The notes below the pieces were generated by a model. The model saw only the letters and a list, made by a program, of their open reading frames with translations. It was not told the origin of the DNA and ran no database searches. DNA of 35,065 nt. It comes from a virus. Its lineage: Duplodnaviria; Heunggongvirae; Uroviricota; Caudoviricetes. Shown one piece after another: positions 98 through 35,065 of this stretch (within the stretch, counting starts at the first letter, position 1; the number at the start of each line of letters is the position of its first letter). The DNA is taken from the IMG/VR virus record IMGVR_UViG_2778261624_000006; one strand, given 5' to 3'. The position numbers and the translations under genes are program-made.

Positions 98-673
98 CTA
101 CGGCAGTGCTGGCCATTCAATATCCTGTGCAGTTGACGTATCAACACGGTTCAGCAACACCCGATACTTTTTCCAGGCTTCCAGCAATGAGGTTTCTTCC
201 TCCGTTGCGATTTCCAGATCTACAGCATCCTGAAGTGGCGCAATATGCTCACTGGCTACCTGCATCAGGCTGTTTTTTGTTTCTTCCGCCTCTCGGATCC
301 GGAACAGTTTTTCTGCTTCTGCATCTTTCACCCAGGCTGTGCCGTTCCACTTCTGAAACTCCCCTTCCGGCGATAACCAGGTAACATTTTCCGGTAACGG
401 ACCGAGTTCAGAAATAAATAACGCGTCCCCTGACGCTACGTCATAAACCGTTTTACCCCGATGGTCTTCAACGAGATGCCACGATGCCTTATCACTGTTG
501 AAAACAGCCACAAAGCCAGCAGGAATATCTGGTGGTGCAATATCGGTACTGTTTGCTGGCAGACCTGTATGAGGCGGAATATATGCGTCACCTTCACCAA
601 TAAATTCATTAGTTCCGGCCAGCAGATTATAAATTTTTATGGTCCGTGGTTGTTCACTCATTCTGAATGCCAT
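98..673 (-). CDS. tfa: tail fiber assembly protein (Tfa)
   Basis: 191-aa ORF immediately downstream of and overlapping the side tail fiber gene; sequence recalled as lambdoid Tfa; stop TAG at 98-100. Confidence 0.85.
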
Positions 674-29266: not shown

Positions 29267-29355
29267 AAACGTCCCCGTTTAGCGCAGAAGTCACCGGAGT
29301 TGTTCAGGCTCCGATGACATGATTATGGCGAGTTGATTATCGCAAATCAAAGGTT

Positions 29356-30608: not shown

Positions 30609-32135
30609 TCAAAAATAAACCTCACCATCAACCATATATTTGAGAGTACTTATCGCCTGCTGGGCGGATATTGTTTTCATTAAAGGATAGTGTTTAAAAA
30701 CAATGCCATTCATAAAATAGATATCACAGGTTTTATTATCTGTATTGATTATGATTTTTTCGAATGTTTTATAGGCAAGTGTACGACATAGCTCTCGCCC
30801 ATTTTTACTGGTTAAGTCAATAGCATGAAAATCACCAAGTGAACTCACCGCTTTACTCTTCAAAGTTTTTAATGATACAGAAGCCCTTCGTAATTCCTTA
30901 TCTAATACTCTGATTTTTTCTGCTATAGCGGTAACTTCAGGCGCAACAGATAATGCAGCAATTAAATTATTAATTTTCATGTGGAGCTCAATAATTTTCA
31001 ACTCTAAAGTTTCATTAGCATCTTTCTTGTTTTCAACTGGTTGGATTTTACTACAATTAAAAAGCAACTCATTAATGATATTATAATCAACCAAATCTCT
31101 CTTTATTGATGGCCTGTCACATCGATGCAGTCTTCTCATCGGACAAACATAATAGCCATGCAAACTTCCAGATACCGCATGAACAATCATGGTATTACCA
31201 CAAGCCTCGCACTTCATAACTGTTCGAAGTAGATTTATCAACATAGGATTTTTGCTACTATTGCTAATACCAAAAGGTGCCAACCGAATTTCCTGTACAG
31301 CGTAAAACAAATCATCTGATATGACTCTGGGATAATAGCCAGCGATTTCACTTATTCCTTTACCTCTTGCACGATATGAAGGTACGCATATACCTATCAG
31401 AGCTTTATTCGCTAATAATTTTTCAATTACAGAAGGTCCCCATGCACTTTCTTTTCCTGAGAAATTCTTTACAGCATGATCATTTAAATACTTGGCTATT
31501 GCATTCAATGAGCGCCTTTCCATCCTGAGTTTAAAAATTAGCTCAATAGTTTTCACCCTGTCGGGGTCTGGAACAAAAGCCGTTCTTTTGTCATCTAAGG
31601 AGAGCCATCTCGGACAAGACGCCGTCATAATCGTACCTGATTCCAGTGCATCCTGCCGTTTTTTCTTCCATGATAATTTAACCCGACTTGACTTTATCTC
31701 GCTTTCTTCATTTGCCCTTTGTGCTATAAGTATGGCTTTTATTAATGAATATGGCTCATTCAAAGAGTCAATATTATAGACTGTATTGTCGCAAAGAGTT
31801 ATAACATCAATACCGTGATTCAAAATCAATTTCAGACGTTCAATCGCTTCACCGACTTTTTCTCTTGAAAGTCTGTCCAGACTTTCAACTAACAATGTAG
31901 TTCCTGGCAATATATAACCATGCTCTATAGCATCTAAAAATTCCGAAAAAGCTCCTGATTGTGCATGCTTTCCTTTGAATGCACTTAATCCTAAATCTTC
32001 ATATGTTATGGTATCAAGATAATAATCACTATTTACCTTTAACCATTCAGCAATAAGTCTTCTCTGTCGGTTTAATGAGTCGCCAGACATCTGACCTGGT
32101 GATGAAAATCGCATATATGCTATGGCTTTTTTCAT
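30609..32135 (-). CDS. ybcK: large serine recombinase (resolvase-type catalytic domain, recombinase domain, zinc ribbon); YbcK-like
   Basis: N-terminal AIAYMRFSSPGQ...R motif of serine recombinases; Cys cluster CEACGNT...YYVCP...C; 508 aa, the typical large-serine-recombinase size. Confidence 0.85.
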   Translation of the reverse strand: MKKAIAYMRFSSPGQMSGDSLNRQRRLIAEWLKVNSDYYLDTITYEDLGLSAFKGKHAQSGAFSEFLDAIEHGYILPGTTLLVESLDRLSREKVGEAIERLKLILNHGIDVITLCDNTVYNIDSLNEPYSLIKAILIAQRANEESEIKSSRVKLSWKKKRQDALESGTIMTASCPRWLSLDDKRTAFVPDPDRVKTIELIFKLRMERRSLNAIAKYLNDHAVKNFSGKESAWGPSVIEKLLANKALIGICVPSYRARGKGISEIAGYYPRVISDDLFYAVQEIRLAPFGISNSSKNPMLINLLRTVMKCEACGNTMIVHAVSGSLHGYYVCPMRRLHRCDRPSIKRDLVDYNIINELLFNCSKIQPVENKKDANETLELKIIELHMKINNLIAALSVAPEVTAIAEKIRVLDKELRRASVSLKTLKSKAVSSLGDFHAIDLTSKNGRELCRTLAYKTFEKIIINTDNKTCDIYFMNGIVFKHYPLMKTISAQQAISTLKYMVDGEVYF

Positions 32136-32391: not shown

Positions 32392-32724
32392 TTAATGTGG
32401 TGTGCTTCGTGACAATAAATTAATAACCAACACACCGGCACAAATCAACATCATGCCTATAATGGCTGGCAGGTCCAGCCGTTGGCCGAAAAGTCCCCAT
32501 GACAGTAAGCTAATCAGGACAATACCGACTCCTGACCAGATAGCATAAGCAATCCCTGTAGGAATATAAGCCAGCGTCTGAGCTAATAACCAGAATGATG
32601 CACAATAACAAATAATTGTACCAACAGATGGCCATAACCGTGTAAAACCTTCTGAAAACTTCATTAAGGTTGTACCAATGACCTCTGCAAGTATTGCACC
32701 ACCAAGATAAATATAAGGGTTCAT
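32392..32724 (-). CDS. emrE: SMR-family multidrug efflux transporter EmrE (110-aa reading from MNPYIY; ORF track extends to 32778)
   Basis: Four-transmembrane SMR protein with conserved Glu in TM1 (AILAEVIGT); matches E. coli EmrE as recalled. Confidence 0.92.
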   Translation of the reverse strand: MNPYIYLGGAILAEVIGTTLMKFSEGFTRLWPSVGTIICYCASFWLLAQTLAYIPTGIAYAIWSGVGIVLISLLSWGLFGQRLDLPAIIGMMLICAGVLVINLLSRSTPH

Positions 32725-32791
32725 AGAATATTCTTTCCTGTTCAAACTGGAGAGAATTGTACTACAGTTTGAACTCAACTCACCTGTTTCA

Positions 32792-33792: not shown

Positions 33793-34808
33793 AGATCCAC
33801 CCCGTAAATCCAGTCTGTGTTTGTCAGGTCGAGTTTTGGTTTGCTAGCTGTCACGCCTGCCTGTTGCTTGTTACGGTTGATTTCGAGTTGGGTCCACTTG
33901 TCGCGGAGTTTGGCCGGACTTAGCACGTTACCGGACCAGAAGTTGTCCTGGCATGCCCAGCGGAACAGCACGCACATGTCGCGGTGGTTACGTCCGTCAC
34001 GTTCACGCATCAGGCGGATATCGTTAGCCCACCCTGCAAAATTCGGTTTTCTGGCTGATGGCGCGATGGTCTTCACCATGTCAAACATCCACTCTGCGGC
34101 GGTCAGGTCTTCTGCTGTCCCCCACCTGCTGCCGCTCTGAATTGCAGCATCTGGTTTCTCCACAGGAAGGTCGTTTTCTGGCTGGTCAGAGGATTCGCCA
34201 GAATTCTCGGACGAAAAAGGTTTTATATTGTCTTTTGTTAGTTTGTCTTTTGTGTTTACCTGATTCGGGTAAACGTCTTTACCTGATTTGGGTAAACTTT
34301 TTTTACCTGATTCAGGTAAATTTACCTCTTTCAGGTAAACTTTATTTTTCTTACCTGATTCGGGTAATGTTGACCATTCACTGACCACATTATTAATGCC
34401 GGTATTCCGCCCGCTCTGAATAAGAATCCCACGCTTTACCAGAACACTTTTTGCAGCAGAACATTTGTGCGGCAATATCCCGGTCAATTCGGACAGTTGC
34501 TCGTTGCTCACCCAATCCTGTTTTTTATTAAAGCCATATGTTTTGCGCATGACAGCTAGGAAGACCAGAAGCTGGTGCTGTGTTAATCCGGCCAGCATCA
34601 CAGCTTCCAGCAACTCATTTGCAATGCGCGTATAACCATCATCGAGATCTGCCACGCGCGGCTCCTTTTGTGCCGCATCCGGCACTGGAAAATTGAATAT
34701 CTCAGCAGTGTTTGCCATAATTCCTCCCGCAATGAGTGTGTTACGATTTGCACCTGAAAGTCGGTTCTGTTCCAGCAGACCGGCTTTCGCCATTTCTGAA
34801 CCTGTCAT
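33789..34808 (-). CDS. O: replication initiator O (non-lambda specificity type), contains the origin iterons
   Basis: N-terminal region resembles lambda O; iteron-encoded LPESGK repeats in the middle; the start ATG overlaps the stop of the upstream gene. Confidence 0.85.
   Translation of the reverse strand: MTGSEMAKAGLLEQNRLSGANRNTLIAGGIMANTAEIFNFPVPDAAQKEPRVADLDDGYTRIANELLEAVMLAGLTQHQLLVFLAVMRKTYGFNKKQDWVSNEQLSELTGILPHKCSAAKSVLVKRGILIQSGRNTGINNVVSEWSTLPESGKKNKVYLKEVNLPESGKKSLPKSGKDVYPNQVNTKDKLTKDNIKPFSSENSGESSDQPENDLPVEKPDAAIQSGSRWGTAEDLTAAEWMFDMVKTIAPSARKPNFAGWANDIRLMRERDGRNHRDMCVLFRWACQDNFWSGNVLSPAKLRDKWTQLEINRNKQQAGVTASKPKLDLTNTDWIYGVDL
34205..34370. repeat. replication origin: five ~19-bp iterons (TTACCTGATTCGGGTAAAC type) plus adjacent AT-rich tract, inside O
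   Basis: Direct reading: repeated palindrome-containing units at about 34255, 34278, 34303, 34321 and 34350, with a T-rich tract at about 34210-34250. Confidence 0.8.
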
Positions 34809-35065
34809 ATCGCCCCCAGCATGGTAGTAACCATCGCCATCAATGGACCAGCCAGATCTGGGTCCACACGAAACATCGACACAATACCTTCACTAATTTC
34901 CTTCAGTTTCTGGTGGCGTGGTGCGTTGAGAATGACAGCCTGTTTTGCCTCACTGAGTTCCTTTTCCATTTCAGCCAACCTAGCCATGAAGCTATCCTGC
35001 TCAACCAGGTAACCGCGATATTCCAGCGGTAGTACCGCCAGAATTGCCGGGGTCAGTTCACGCAC
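34805..35065 (-). CDS. partial CDS (5' end beyond window) in the cII position; not lambda cII, possibly YdaT-like
   Basis: ORF runs off the window edge; the C-terminal 86 aa do not resemble lambda CII; motif PAILAVLP recalled from YdaT-family proteins. Confidence 0.45.
   Translation of the reverse strand: MRELTPAILAVLPLEYRGYLVEQDSFMARLAEMEKELSEAKQAVILNAPRHQKLKEISEGIVSMFRVDPDLAGPLMAMVTTMLGAI

Follow-up and report, generated by a model that had tools for sequence, protein, structure and literature searches.

A YdaT-family protein, probably a phi80-type CII, and a predicted antisense RNA gene upstream of replication gene O in a lambdoid Escherichia coli prophage

The window, by which the whole analysed stretch of 35,065 nucleotides is meant, closes within a gene of the minus strand that is followed, on the same strand, by a short spacer and by the replication initiator gene O (Table 1). 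The visible part of this gene is an 86-codon ORF that stays open through the window end, and the GTG with which it opens is an internal codon, Val94, and not a start codon. Both the start codon and the helix-turn-helix (HTH) domain of this cII-type gene lie outside the window. The full-length gene, encoding 179 aa, was taken from two near-identical E. coli loci (L001 and L002), and the 5' half, the start codon and the cro and cI genes were read from these relatives, with 99.7% DNA identity over 666 nt. The visible codons, which correspond to residues 94-179, are intact, and the protein sequence that they encode is identical to that of L001.

Table 1. Features at the right-hand end of the window, with positions in the whole stretch.
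Feature	Position	Strand	Basis or remark
phi80-type cII gene (probable), 3' part: codons 94-179 and TGA stop (34807..34805)	34805..35065	-	ORF, Pfam, PHROG, relatives
cII-O spacer, 86 nt, open in the O frame in the E. coli allele	34719..34804		holds the predicted antisense sRNA gene
pO-like sigma-70 promoter (predicted), TTGAAT-17-CATAAT, TG-extended -10	34693..34721	+	predicted +1 at ~34729
Antisense sRNA, predicted ~69 nt, putative phi80 M3 RNA homolog	34729..34797	+	both ends predicted
ATGA, cII stop TGA overlapping the ATG of the long O ORF	34805..34808	-	RefSeq O start, probably not the functional start
Replication initiator gene O, most likely 309 aa	33789..34718	-	ATG 34718..34716, Shine-Dalgarno GGGAGG

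In the two near-identical relatives, the genes follow the order cI-like S24 repressor, YdaS-type cro, cII-type gene, O, P and ren. Similar neighbours are found in loci from about 60 species, in which the upstream ORF is a YdaS_toxin (40 of 59 loci, the rest being other Cro-type HTH proteins) and the downstream one a Phage_rep_O (30 of 45 loci). The gene thus has the placement of the YdaT family, with Cro on one side and replication genes on the other and with the repressor gene in divergent orientation, the O side alone being visible within the window.

The partial ORF encodes a YdaT-family protein that stands outside the lambda CII family. Its translation contains the segment PAILAVLP, from which the sequence-only reading had suspected a YdaT-family protein, and the profile searches bear this out: Pfam YdaT_toxin (PF06254, cutoff 21 bits) is matched by the partial protein with E=4.6e-20 and 72.3 bits, and by the full-length protein with 9.5e-30 and 103.4 bits. 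PHROG 163, named "CII-like transcriptional activator", is matched with 1.6e-32 and 1.4e-67, respectively, and the sequence matches in the PDB at E<0.01 are the YdaT chain 8bt1 and its homolog 3c4r, while no NCBIfam model matching the protein was found. The protein is 66% identical to the cII protein of phi80 and 95-100% identical to proteins labelled 'cII' in the viable phages PhiR5_1, IdasGreatGrand, 4A7, 1W and 3W, the full-length protein of the near-identical relative being 100% identical to genes labelled cII in viable coliphages.

An AF2 monomer model was built on the full-length near-identical protein P0005 (pLDDT 77). It contains helices at residues 29-43 and 45-58, a loop at 59-69, and further helices at 70-82, 88-104, 107-113 and 119-138; the last of these, together with 143-160 and 162-178, is predicted at pLDDT 83-94 and is encoded within the window. 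In Foldseek, good matches to this model were obtained only with 3c4r and 8bt1 (target TM 0.72-0.74, rmsd 2.6-3.1 Å, probability 1.00), so that the predicted fold is that of the YdaT family, its HTH part being outside the window. The part of the protein encoded in the window runs from the end of helix 4, through helix 5 and the helix predicted to mediate oligomerisation, to a helical C-terminal tail that is conserved. In the full-length protein, QKLFRFLD aligns with QKIFRWLD of 8bt1, including the conserved arginine of the recognition helix; this residue, R79, lies outside the window and is invariant in 36 homologs. DNA binding is known to need the recognition-helix arginine, R60 in CP-933P YdaT and R57 in Rac YdaT.

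Taking into account that the variable sites of ydaT are distributed 29/18/50 over the three codon positions, and that its C-terminal half shows 40 synonymous against 19 non-synonymous variants, the gene evolves under purifying selection. Synonymous-site conservation, followed along the gene in search of an embedded PRE, is somewhat higher in codons 1-24 (0.72-0.83, against about 0.6 elsewhere), a measure confounded by relatedness.

This selection bears on a first alternative, in which the gene would be an inert remnant within a DLP12-like defective prophage, with no role in any decision. DLP12 of K-12 is indeed a defective prophage, cargo genes (emrE and ybcK) are inserted between ren and the nin genes in the window, and in some relatives neighbouring genes are pseudogenes (ren and kil in L001, for example). 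However, besides the signs of purifying selection, the 86 codons are intact and their product equals that of L001, which is itself the cII protein of viable phages, and the closest genome, KSC207, has a complete-looking prophage, from int to tail genes. We consider an inert remnant improbable.

Downstream of the gene, the spacer shows no homology to lambda upstream of the Shine-Dalgarno sequence of O, and its layout matches that of the 85-nt spacer between cII and gene 15 of phi80. It is predicted to carry, on the opposite strand, a homolog of phi80 M3 RNA and lambda OOP RNA, whose promoter would overlap the O start codon. The putative promoter is the sole promoter-like site in 34300..35065 and the positional homolog of lambda pO (TTGAGT-17-CATAAT), and the CAT of its -10 element is the antisense of the O start codon. 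Among loci of other species in which the ATG of the replication gene lies 87-90 nt past the cII stop, CATAAT or CATACT is present in all, and TTGnnn at a 17-nt spacing in most. In phi80, the annotated 5' end of M3 RNA lies 7 nt past the equivalent -10, and the phi80 record describes, in the same place and on the same strand, an 'M3 RNA; homolog of lambda oop RNA'.

The predicted transcript would consist of a 5' hairpin, a terminator hairpin (34756..34788) and then GCCAUUUCU, ending about 8 nt before the cII stop codon. Thus, a -10 over the O start codon and a terminator hairpin near the cII 3' end, both characteristic of OOP and M3, are found in the sequence, while the overlap with the cII coding region that is a property of lambda OOP is absent from the predicted sRNA. 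Its fold energy is -24.1 kcal/mol (z=-2.5). The hairpin shows strong covariation, with compensatory changes in 9 of 13 pairs and 92% of cells paired, against 31-44% when the partner is slid, and the wobble pairs are distributed asymmetrically: in 43 cells a C.A on the sense strand is a G.U on the antisense strand, whereas a G.U on the sense strand occurs in 1 cell. RNAalifold recovers 12 pairs on the antisense strand, 9 of them compensatory, and on the sense strand only the top 4 hairpin pairs plus 3 unrelated flanking pairs. The U-run after the hairpin, which reads UUUUU in most relatives, is the weaker UUUCU in the window; a simple terminator scan of 34300..35065 did not call the window's terminator hairpin, and the Rfam scan returned no family for the spacer, nor for lambda oop or M3 RNA.

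Two other explanations of the conserved spacer were discarded. A terminator or processing site on the pR transcript would lack a U-run on the sense strand and would have to accommodate the 43 C.A mismatches with a consensus fold reduced to the top 4 pairs. A small conserved ORF beginning at an internal ATG (MAKAGL...) is contradicted by the absence of that ATG in a sizeable minority of the aligned homologs, as judged by eye, and by stops in its frame in three loci. By analogy with OOP, the sRNA would pair with the pR transcript and create a target for RNase III, lowering cII expression.

The existence of this putative RNA gene is relevant to the point at which O begins. On the minus strand, the stop of the cII-type gene does overlap an ATG (34808..34806) within the ATGA, as the sequence-only reading had observed, and this ATG opens a 339-codon ORF that contains O and from which RefSeq annotates the gene; what was not confirmed is the assignment of that ATG as the O start. 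The homology to lambda O and to phi80 gp15 begins exactly at the internal ATG 90 nt downstream, behind a conserved Shine-Dalgarno sequence; the protein read from there aligns with lambda O from the first residue of both, with 68% identity and a C-terminal part of about 140 aa that is almost identical. The encoded protein matches Pfam Phage_rep_O and TIGR01610, and the gene contains the ori, with five palindromic iterons (34251..34367). This downstream ATG is most likely the real start of O.

The alternative would be a functional ATGA, giving an O protein of 339 aa whose translation is coupled to the termination of the cII-like gene, as the sequence-only reading suggested and as the RefSeq start implies. 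In its favour, no stop interrupts the frame between the upstream ATG and the body of O, either in the window or in 80 of the 81 close E. coli relatives, and a G-run placed 3-4 nt before that ATG pairs with -8.4 kcal/mol. The 90-nt stretch also shows 4 synonymous and 9 non-synonymous substitutions. These counts do not differ from the 3 and 10 found over the initial 30 codons of genuine O, but they do from the 40 and 19 of the ydaT C-terminal half (Fisher p=0.025), so that the comparison is compatible with coding without being decisive. The pairing calculated for GGGAGG before the downstream ATG is -10.3 kcal/mol, and the two energies, by which both starts are usable, discriminate weakly between them.

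Against a functional ATGA, the spacer is interrupted by an in-frame stop in 19 of the 24 other-species loci with comparable layout, and an in-frame start at the cII stop occurs in none of the 24. Stops fall inside the hairpin in L084, L090 and L125, and L020 has a 1-nt deletion in the cII-O stretch. The G-run before the upstream ATG follows from the Leu-Gly codons that are invariant in the cII tail, the constraint on the stretch appears to be that of an antisense RNA hairpin rather than of a protein, and phi80 gene 15 starts after the spacer. Since the real O start most likely lies 90 nt downstream and the spacer holds a predicted antisense RNA gene, translational coupling through the ATGA is unlikely. 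Some initiation may nevertheless take place at the upstream ATG, because the G-run is a usable Shine-Dalgarno-like sequence.

This leads to a more elaborate possibility, in which the E. coli lineage would have opened the spacer in the O frame and gained the ATG, so that a fraction of O would be made as a 339-aa isoform coupled to cII, with the entire coding sequence of its extension lying opposite the sRNA and the antisense RNA gating both O and cII. If true, replication and the lysogeny decision would be linked by a mechanism for which no counterpart has been described in lambda or phi80, but we regard this scheme as quite unlikely. An O starting at the downstream ATG has a practical consequence, namely that the annotation of O in RefSeq and in many phage records appears to be 30 codons too long. 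Likewise, neither of the two RefSeq E. coli loci inspected has an annotation for the predicted, structurally conserved OOP/M3-type sRNA gene.

As regards the function of the cII-type protein, YdaT has been reported to activate a PRE-like promoter (PMC8630535), and Casjens and Jobling gave ydaT the cII role (PMC5917428). CP-933P YdaT, a tetramer with a POU-like HTH, recognises an inverted repeat located between ydaS and ydaT (PMC9986795). Rac YdaT acts as an activator of racR and has its binding site, a box, at the start codon of its own gene (PMC11879457). By analogy with these two proteins, which are 27-28% identical to that of the window, the following sequence of events can be proposed. The protein would be made from the rightward early (pR) transcript, after cro; its N-terminal POU-like HTH domain, encoded outside the window, would bind DNA, and it would oligomerise via the helical C-terminal part encoded in the window. 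It would then activate a leftward establishment promoter near the cro/cII junction, leading to the production of repressor and, finally, to lysogeny.

The consensus of the CP-933P and Rac sites, TTGATT-N6-AATCAA, has no convincing counterpart at the cro-cII junction of L001 (where the best candidate has 3 mismatches), L002 or phi80. Copies with 1-2 mismatches are present at the start of cro in L002 and L001, and the window contains one perfect site, at 29333..29350 in the nin region.

It has been suggested by the Pfam names, YdaT_toxin and YdaS_toxin, that such a gene could encode the toxin of a YdaS/YdaT toxin-antitoxin pair, and over-expressed Rac YdaT is in fact toxic (PMC11879457). However, the label comes from a prediction algorithm and has not been borne out by experiment (PMC5917428, PMC8630535, PMC9986795), and over-expression of lambda CII is toxic too (PMC5917428). 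Moreover, the predicted fold combines a DNA-binding HTH with an oligomerisation helix, and the gene occupies the cII slot in loci from about 60 species and is carried as cII by viable phages. Fold and synteny point to a transcription factor, and a toxin appears very unlikely. The label has consequences for annotation: the 666-nt segment comprising cII, spacer and O is found in 2,414 of 5,426 complete E. coli genomes, all the matches listed bear the toxin YdaT label, and the name "toxin YdaT domain-containing protein" used by Pfam and RefSeq hides a probable lysogeny regulator.

The weakest alternative, a diverged member of the lambda CII family (PF05269), which could appeal to the shared genomic slot, to the database label 'CII-like' and to the short stretch over which, as noted by Wons et al. 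(PMC11879457), the recognition helix of Rac YdaT resembles that of lambda CII, is refuted at the level of sequence, profile and predicted fold and has next to no probability, given that the PF05269 profile does not match the protein at E<=1 (the lambda CII control scores 1.1e-48), BLASTP yields no alignment with lambda CII, hhalign gives a probability of 1.8% over 11 columns, lambda CII is assigned to PHROG 191 and not to 163, no CII chain occurs among the 67 Foldseek matches with E<=10, the sizes are 179 and 97 aa, and the symmetric YdaT tetramers recognise inverted repeats, the repeats recognised by CII being direct ones (PMC9986795).

The claim that the gene in the cII position is not lambda cII is therefore confirmed. 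The check that had been proposed for it, a search of the full protein against CII and YdaT profiles, gave a divided result, since the protein does align with a CII, that of phi80, and with PHROG 163, whose name is a functional one, while it does not align with lambda CII. The further idea that the lysogeny circuitry might be non-canonical was not supported, as the protein is of the phi80 CII type, it is encoded as cII by viable phages, and the relatives have the standard cI/cro/cII/O/P layout.

Taking all this together, we consider it highly probable that the window carries the C-terminal half of a phi80-type CII, a non-orthologous functional equivalent of lambda CII, in a DLP12-type lambdoid prophage of E. 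coli, without coupling to O and with a spacer carrying an antisense sRNA. Of this reading, the analysis demonstrates the family to which the protein belongs, its fold, the position of the gene and its identity to cII genes of viable phages. The protein is no unusual occupant of the cII slot; it belongs to a long-known alternative type of CII. In lambdoid phages, the part of CII is known to be played by proteins of two or more unrelated families, of which the phi80/YdaT one is present in this prophage.

In comparison with lambda, both proteins occupy the slot after cro and before O, with a presumed role as activators of lysogeny establishment, and the two loci share an antisense sRNA with its promoter over the O start codon, this RNA being a predicted one in the window. 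In contrast, there is no detectable sequence, profile or fold relationship with lambda CII (PF05269, PHROG 191).

With CP-933P YdaT (PDB 8BT1), with 3C4R from E. coli O6:H1, which is 84% identical to it, and with Rac YdaT, for which there is no PDB entry, the protein shares the Pfam family, the recognition-helix motif QK(I/L)FR(W/F)LD with its conserved arginine, the PAI...P segment and the cII slot, and its predicted fold superposes on the two structures with the TM scores given above. The CII-like role of these relatives has been shown experimentally (PMC8630535, PMC9986795, PMC11879457). The protein of the window differs from them in about 24 additional, predicted-disordered N-terminal residues and in a longer, conserved helical C-terminal tail, PLMxMVTxMLGxx.

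The resemblance to phi80 CII (PHI80_49, AFV29185; 'cII gene' in GenBank X13065) extends over the full 179-180 aa without large gaps, and both proteins match PHROG 163 and Pfam YdaT_toxin, so that the window's protein may be described as an allelic variant in which the segment 109-135 differs most. Both genes lie between a Cro-like gene and an O-like initiator and precede a spacer of about 85 nt with an antisense sRNA, annotated in phi80 and predicted in the window. The O of the window is a lambda-like mosaic and not phi80 gp15, and the hairpin of the phi80 sRNA is of another sequence type (GGGCCUUUGAAG.. in phi80 and GAAAGUCGGUUCUG.. in the window). PMC11143913, citing Bothwell et al. 1976, mentions phi80 M3 RNA as experimentally observed and as a substrate of RNase P. 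The predicted sRNA has in common with M3 and OOP its location on the opposite strand between cII and O, a -10 (CATAAT) containing the antisense of the O start codon, a length of about 60-77 nt and two hairpins, the second being the terminator. It has no sequence similarity to lambda OOP, whose overlap with the cII coding sequence is about 50 nt long. Phi80 M3 ends 15 nt short of the cII stop, and the sRNA of the window is likewise predicted to end before it; thus, it matches the phi80 type and not the lambda type.

The open reading frame (ORF) that reaches the end of the window contains 86 sense codons followed by a TGA stop, and its GTG first codon is only the point at which the window is cut. 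In near-identical E. coli genomes (99.7% identity over 666 nt), the full gene is 540 nt long and encodes a 179-aa protein, of which the window carries residues 94-179. The features pointed out in a sequence-only reading of this DNA, i.e., the partial ORF, a PAILAVLP motif in its translation and an ATGA in which stop and start codons overlap, are all present. That reading also associated the gene with YdaT rather than with lambda cII, and Pfam, PDB, fold and motif evidence indicate that it was correct in both respects. The partial protein matches Pfam YdaT_toxin at 4.6e-20 and the full-length protein, taken from the near-identical genomes, at 9.5e-30, while the latter does not match Phage_CII (PF05269), a family recovered at 1.1e-48 by the lambda CII control in the same search. 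Neither BLASTP nor a profile of 36 homologs (alignment probability 1.8%) relates it to lambda CII. Its only sequence relatives in the PDB, besides two chance-level matches (E >= 1), are CP-933P YdaT (8bt1) and the homolog 3c4r, and these are also the only structures retrieved by Foldseek (target TM 0.72-0.74, rmsd about 3 A), with no CII structure among the matches, using an AlphaFold2 model (pLDDT 77) whose N-terminal 26 residues are disordered. The recognition helix QKLFRFLD resembles QKIFRWLD of YdaT, including the conserved Arg, the sole invariant residue reported for this helix (PMC9986795).

A YdaT-type protein in the cII slot is already known. Proteins 95-100% identical, annotated as cII, were found by tblastn in the viable coliphages PhiR5_1, IdasGreatGrand, 4A7, 1W, 3W and Perceval; phi80 cII shares 66% identity with the window-type protein, and the cII genes of mEp237, HK225 and HK639 are also similar. 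The cII role was given to ydaT by Casjens (2003) and Jobling (PMC5917428), and CP-933P YdaT, whose homology to phi80 CII was noted by the authors, activates a PRE-like promoter (PMC8630535). In PHROGs, the protein belongs to phrog_163, "CII-like transcriptional activator" (1.4e-67), and lambda CII to phrog_191, so that one functional name covers two unrelated families.

The window is a lambdoid prophage of the DLP12 type in reverse orientation, with the gene order Q, nin genes, ybcK, emrE, ren, P, O and phi80-type cII. In relatives, the next genes encode a Cro-type HTH protein of the YdaS family (4e-17) and a divergent S24/LexA-like repressor. Both this canonical cI/cro/cII/O/P layout and the cII-annotated homologs of viable phages speak against the earlier suggestion of a non-canonical lysis-lysogeny circuitry. 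In a comparison of loci from about 60 enterobacterial species, 40 of 59 upstream ORFs are YdaS_toxin, the remainder belonging to other Cro/HTH families (lambda-type Cro in 3), and 30 of 45 downstream ORFs are Phage_rep_O. Across the relatives L001-L082, at least three unrelated cro sequences are found in the 40 nt upstream of the start codon of a single cII allele (>=95% identity), and homology is lost at this codon or only a few nt from it. Given this clean mosaic junction, a cII-dependent promoter or operator common to these phages would have to lie within cII itself.

As side observations, emrE and ybcK, the hallmark DLP12 cargo, lie between ren and the nin genes, and the 128-aa ORF call for emrE has a spurious TTG-started N-terminal extension (the RefSeq product has 110 aa). 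No Rfam family other than the sRNA candidate family IS009 matches the window at gathering threshold. The near-identical E. coli locus L001 carries a C4 antisense RNA, isrK and c4 a1/b1 target elements beside a P22AR antirepressor fragment, a P1/P7-style antisense immunity module in the same prophage type; elements of these kinds have no window match at that threshold.

Coordinates of the features discussed (in the window unless a relative is named)
Feature	Coordinates	Strand	Remarks
Partial phi80-type cII	34805..35065	minus	window ends inside the ORF
ATGA	34808..34805	minus	cII stop overlapping the ATG of a 339-codon ORF containing O
Predicted M3/OOP homolog	34729..~34797	plus	fold -24.1 kcal/mol, z=-2.5
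Stretch with conserved RCC(A/U)	34789..34797	plus	columns 16-24 of alignment A3
Spacer hairpin	34756..34788		13 bp
Promoter-like site	34693..34721	plus	TTGAAT-17-CATAAT
ATG read as O start	34718..34716	minus	
Palindromic ori iterons inside O	34251..34367		five; TTACCTGATTCGGGTAA and variants, spacing 19-29 nt
emrE	32392..32778		multidrug transporter gene
ybcK	30609..32135		large serine recombinase
Candidate YdaT/CII-type control site	29333..29350		TTGATTATCGCAAATCAA, perfect palindrome
Rightward promoter-like site	29350..29322	minus	TTGATT-17-CATAAT
IS009	132..330	minus	226.7 bits, E=1e-55
YdaT-box-like sequence, L002	31595..31612		TTGATAATGACAAATCAA; 1 mismatch; across cro start codon
YdaT-box-like sequence, L001	5394..5411		TTGATTCAAATTAACCAC; 2 mismatches; just before cro Shine-Dalgarno sequence
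Antisense RNA elements, L001	9945..10142		

The ATG overlapping the cII stop is the O start in the RefSeq annotation, and had been taken as a sign of translational coupling. The overlap is real; as the O start, however, homology points to the internal ATG at 34718. Homology to lambda O, in both DNA and protein, begins exactly at this codon and its Shine-Dalgarno sequence (MANTAEIFNF against lambda MTNTAKILNF, residue 1 on residue 1), homology to phi80 gene 15 likewise starts there, and the 90 nt upstream have no lambda counterpart. Of 24 loci from other species that share the layout, with a Shine-Dalgarno sequence and an ATG 87-90 nt beyond the cII stop, 19 contain an in-frame stop within the spacer, and an in-frame start at the cII stop is found in none; in three loci, stops fall inside the hairpin, and a single E. 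coli locus shows a deletion of 1 nt at this place. The G-run before the upstream ATG gives a Shine-Dalgarno energy of -8.4 kcal/mol, versus -10.3 for ATG 34718, and the substitution pattern of the 90-nt stretch does not decide between coding and non-coding. ATG 34718 is read from the sequence as the probable O start, and some initiation at 34808 is improbable. Coupling is unlikely in view of the O homology start, the spacer stops, the constraint on the spacer as RNA and the antisense promoter. In the relative L049, the cII stop is changed from TGA to TGG (ATGGCAGG) and the frame runs into the spacer, either through a sequencing error or as a natural read-through variant. O itself is a mosaic, with an N-terminal iteron-binding half unlike lambda and a C-terminal part of ~140 aa almost identical to lambda O, consistent with the adjacent P being of the lambda type.

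Constraint on the spacer falls on RNA rather than on protein. Compensatory changes affect 9 of the 13 pairs of its hairpin, in which 92% of cells are paired, versus 80% in shuffles and 31-44% with the 3' partner slid. Non-Watson-Crick cells comprise 43 C.A on the cII-sense strand, equivalent to G.U on the opposite one, and a single G.U on the sense strand. RNAalifold recovers 12 pairs (9 compensatory) on the strand opposite cII, and on the cII-sense strand only the top 4 hairpin pairs plus 3 unrelated flanking pairs. This strand-specific pairing assigns the hairpin to a transcript of the plus strand, in which RCC(A/U) and a U-run lie downstream of it. The sole promoter-like site in the last 766 nt lies on the same strand, the CAT of its CATAAT being antisense to the O start codon, exactly the geometry of lambda pO (TTGAGT-17-CATAAT); all homologous loci in which the replication-gene ATG follows the cII stop by 87-90 nt retain the -10, and most of them a TTG-type -35 at 17-nt spacing. 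The curated phi80 genome places, at the same position and strand, a 60-nt "M3 RNA, homolog of lambda oop RNA", within the 85-nt spacer between cII and gene 15. M3 has been observed experimentally as a phi80 RNA and is a classical substrate of RNase P (PMC11143913). Because of the strand bias, the antisense promoter and this phi80 annotation, the plus-strand segment is read as a predicted M3/OOP homolog. The likeness of RCC(A/U) to the tRNA 3' NCCA end may be meaningful, M3 being an RNase P substrate; the motif is missing from the phi80-type hairpin.

While protein family, fold, gene position and conservation come from the present data, the following steps are modelled on studied relatives. The phi80-type CII would be made from the pR transcript, after Cro, and would bind an inverted repeat through its HTH domain, oligomerising through the C-terminal helices, the part encoded in the window; it has been reported that CP-933P YdaT combines a POU-like HTH domain with a tetramerising helix and binds TTGATT-N6-AATCAA between ydaS and ydaT (PMC9986795). 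The protein would then activate leftward transcription of the repressor gene from an establishment promoter. As in lambda, this promoter and its operator would be expected in the conserved 5' part of cII, since one cII allele serves several immunity modules; synonymous-site conservation, slightly raised over codons 1-24, is compatible with an embedded promoter, though not conclusive. On the model of OOP and RNase III (PMC2327240), cII expression would be lowered through pairing of the M3/OOP-like RNA with the intercistronic stretch of the pR transcript.

A perfect palindrome located between a 118-aa ORF and ybcN, among the nin genes, is the sole 0-mismatch match in 35 kb to the footprinted CP-933P YdaT operator consensus (rough chance estimate about 0.004). 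It covers the -35 and spacer of a rightward promoter-like sequence, and a related palindrome, TTGATAAAACACTATCAA, occupies the corresponding position in phi80, upstream of a ybcN-like gene. This may be a YdaT/CII-type control site, loosely like paQ, or chance. Both immunity types (L001 and L002) also have YdaT-box-like sequences at the 5' end of their cro-type gene, an arrangement similar to the binding of Rac YdaT over PydaST; this protein recognises a box located at the start codon of its own gene and is an activator of racR (PMC11879457).

The remaining value of these results concerns annotation: the "toxin" label, an O apparently called 30 codons too long and an unannotated putative sRNA, for which Rfam has no family. 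The 666-nt cII-spacer-O segment with all three issues is found in 2,414 of 5,426 complete E. coli genomes. Lambda OOP overlaps the cII coding sequence, whereas the sRNA predicted here does not, in agreement with the arrangement in phi80.
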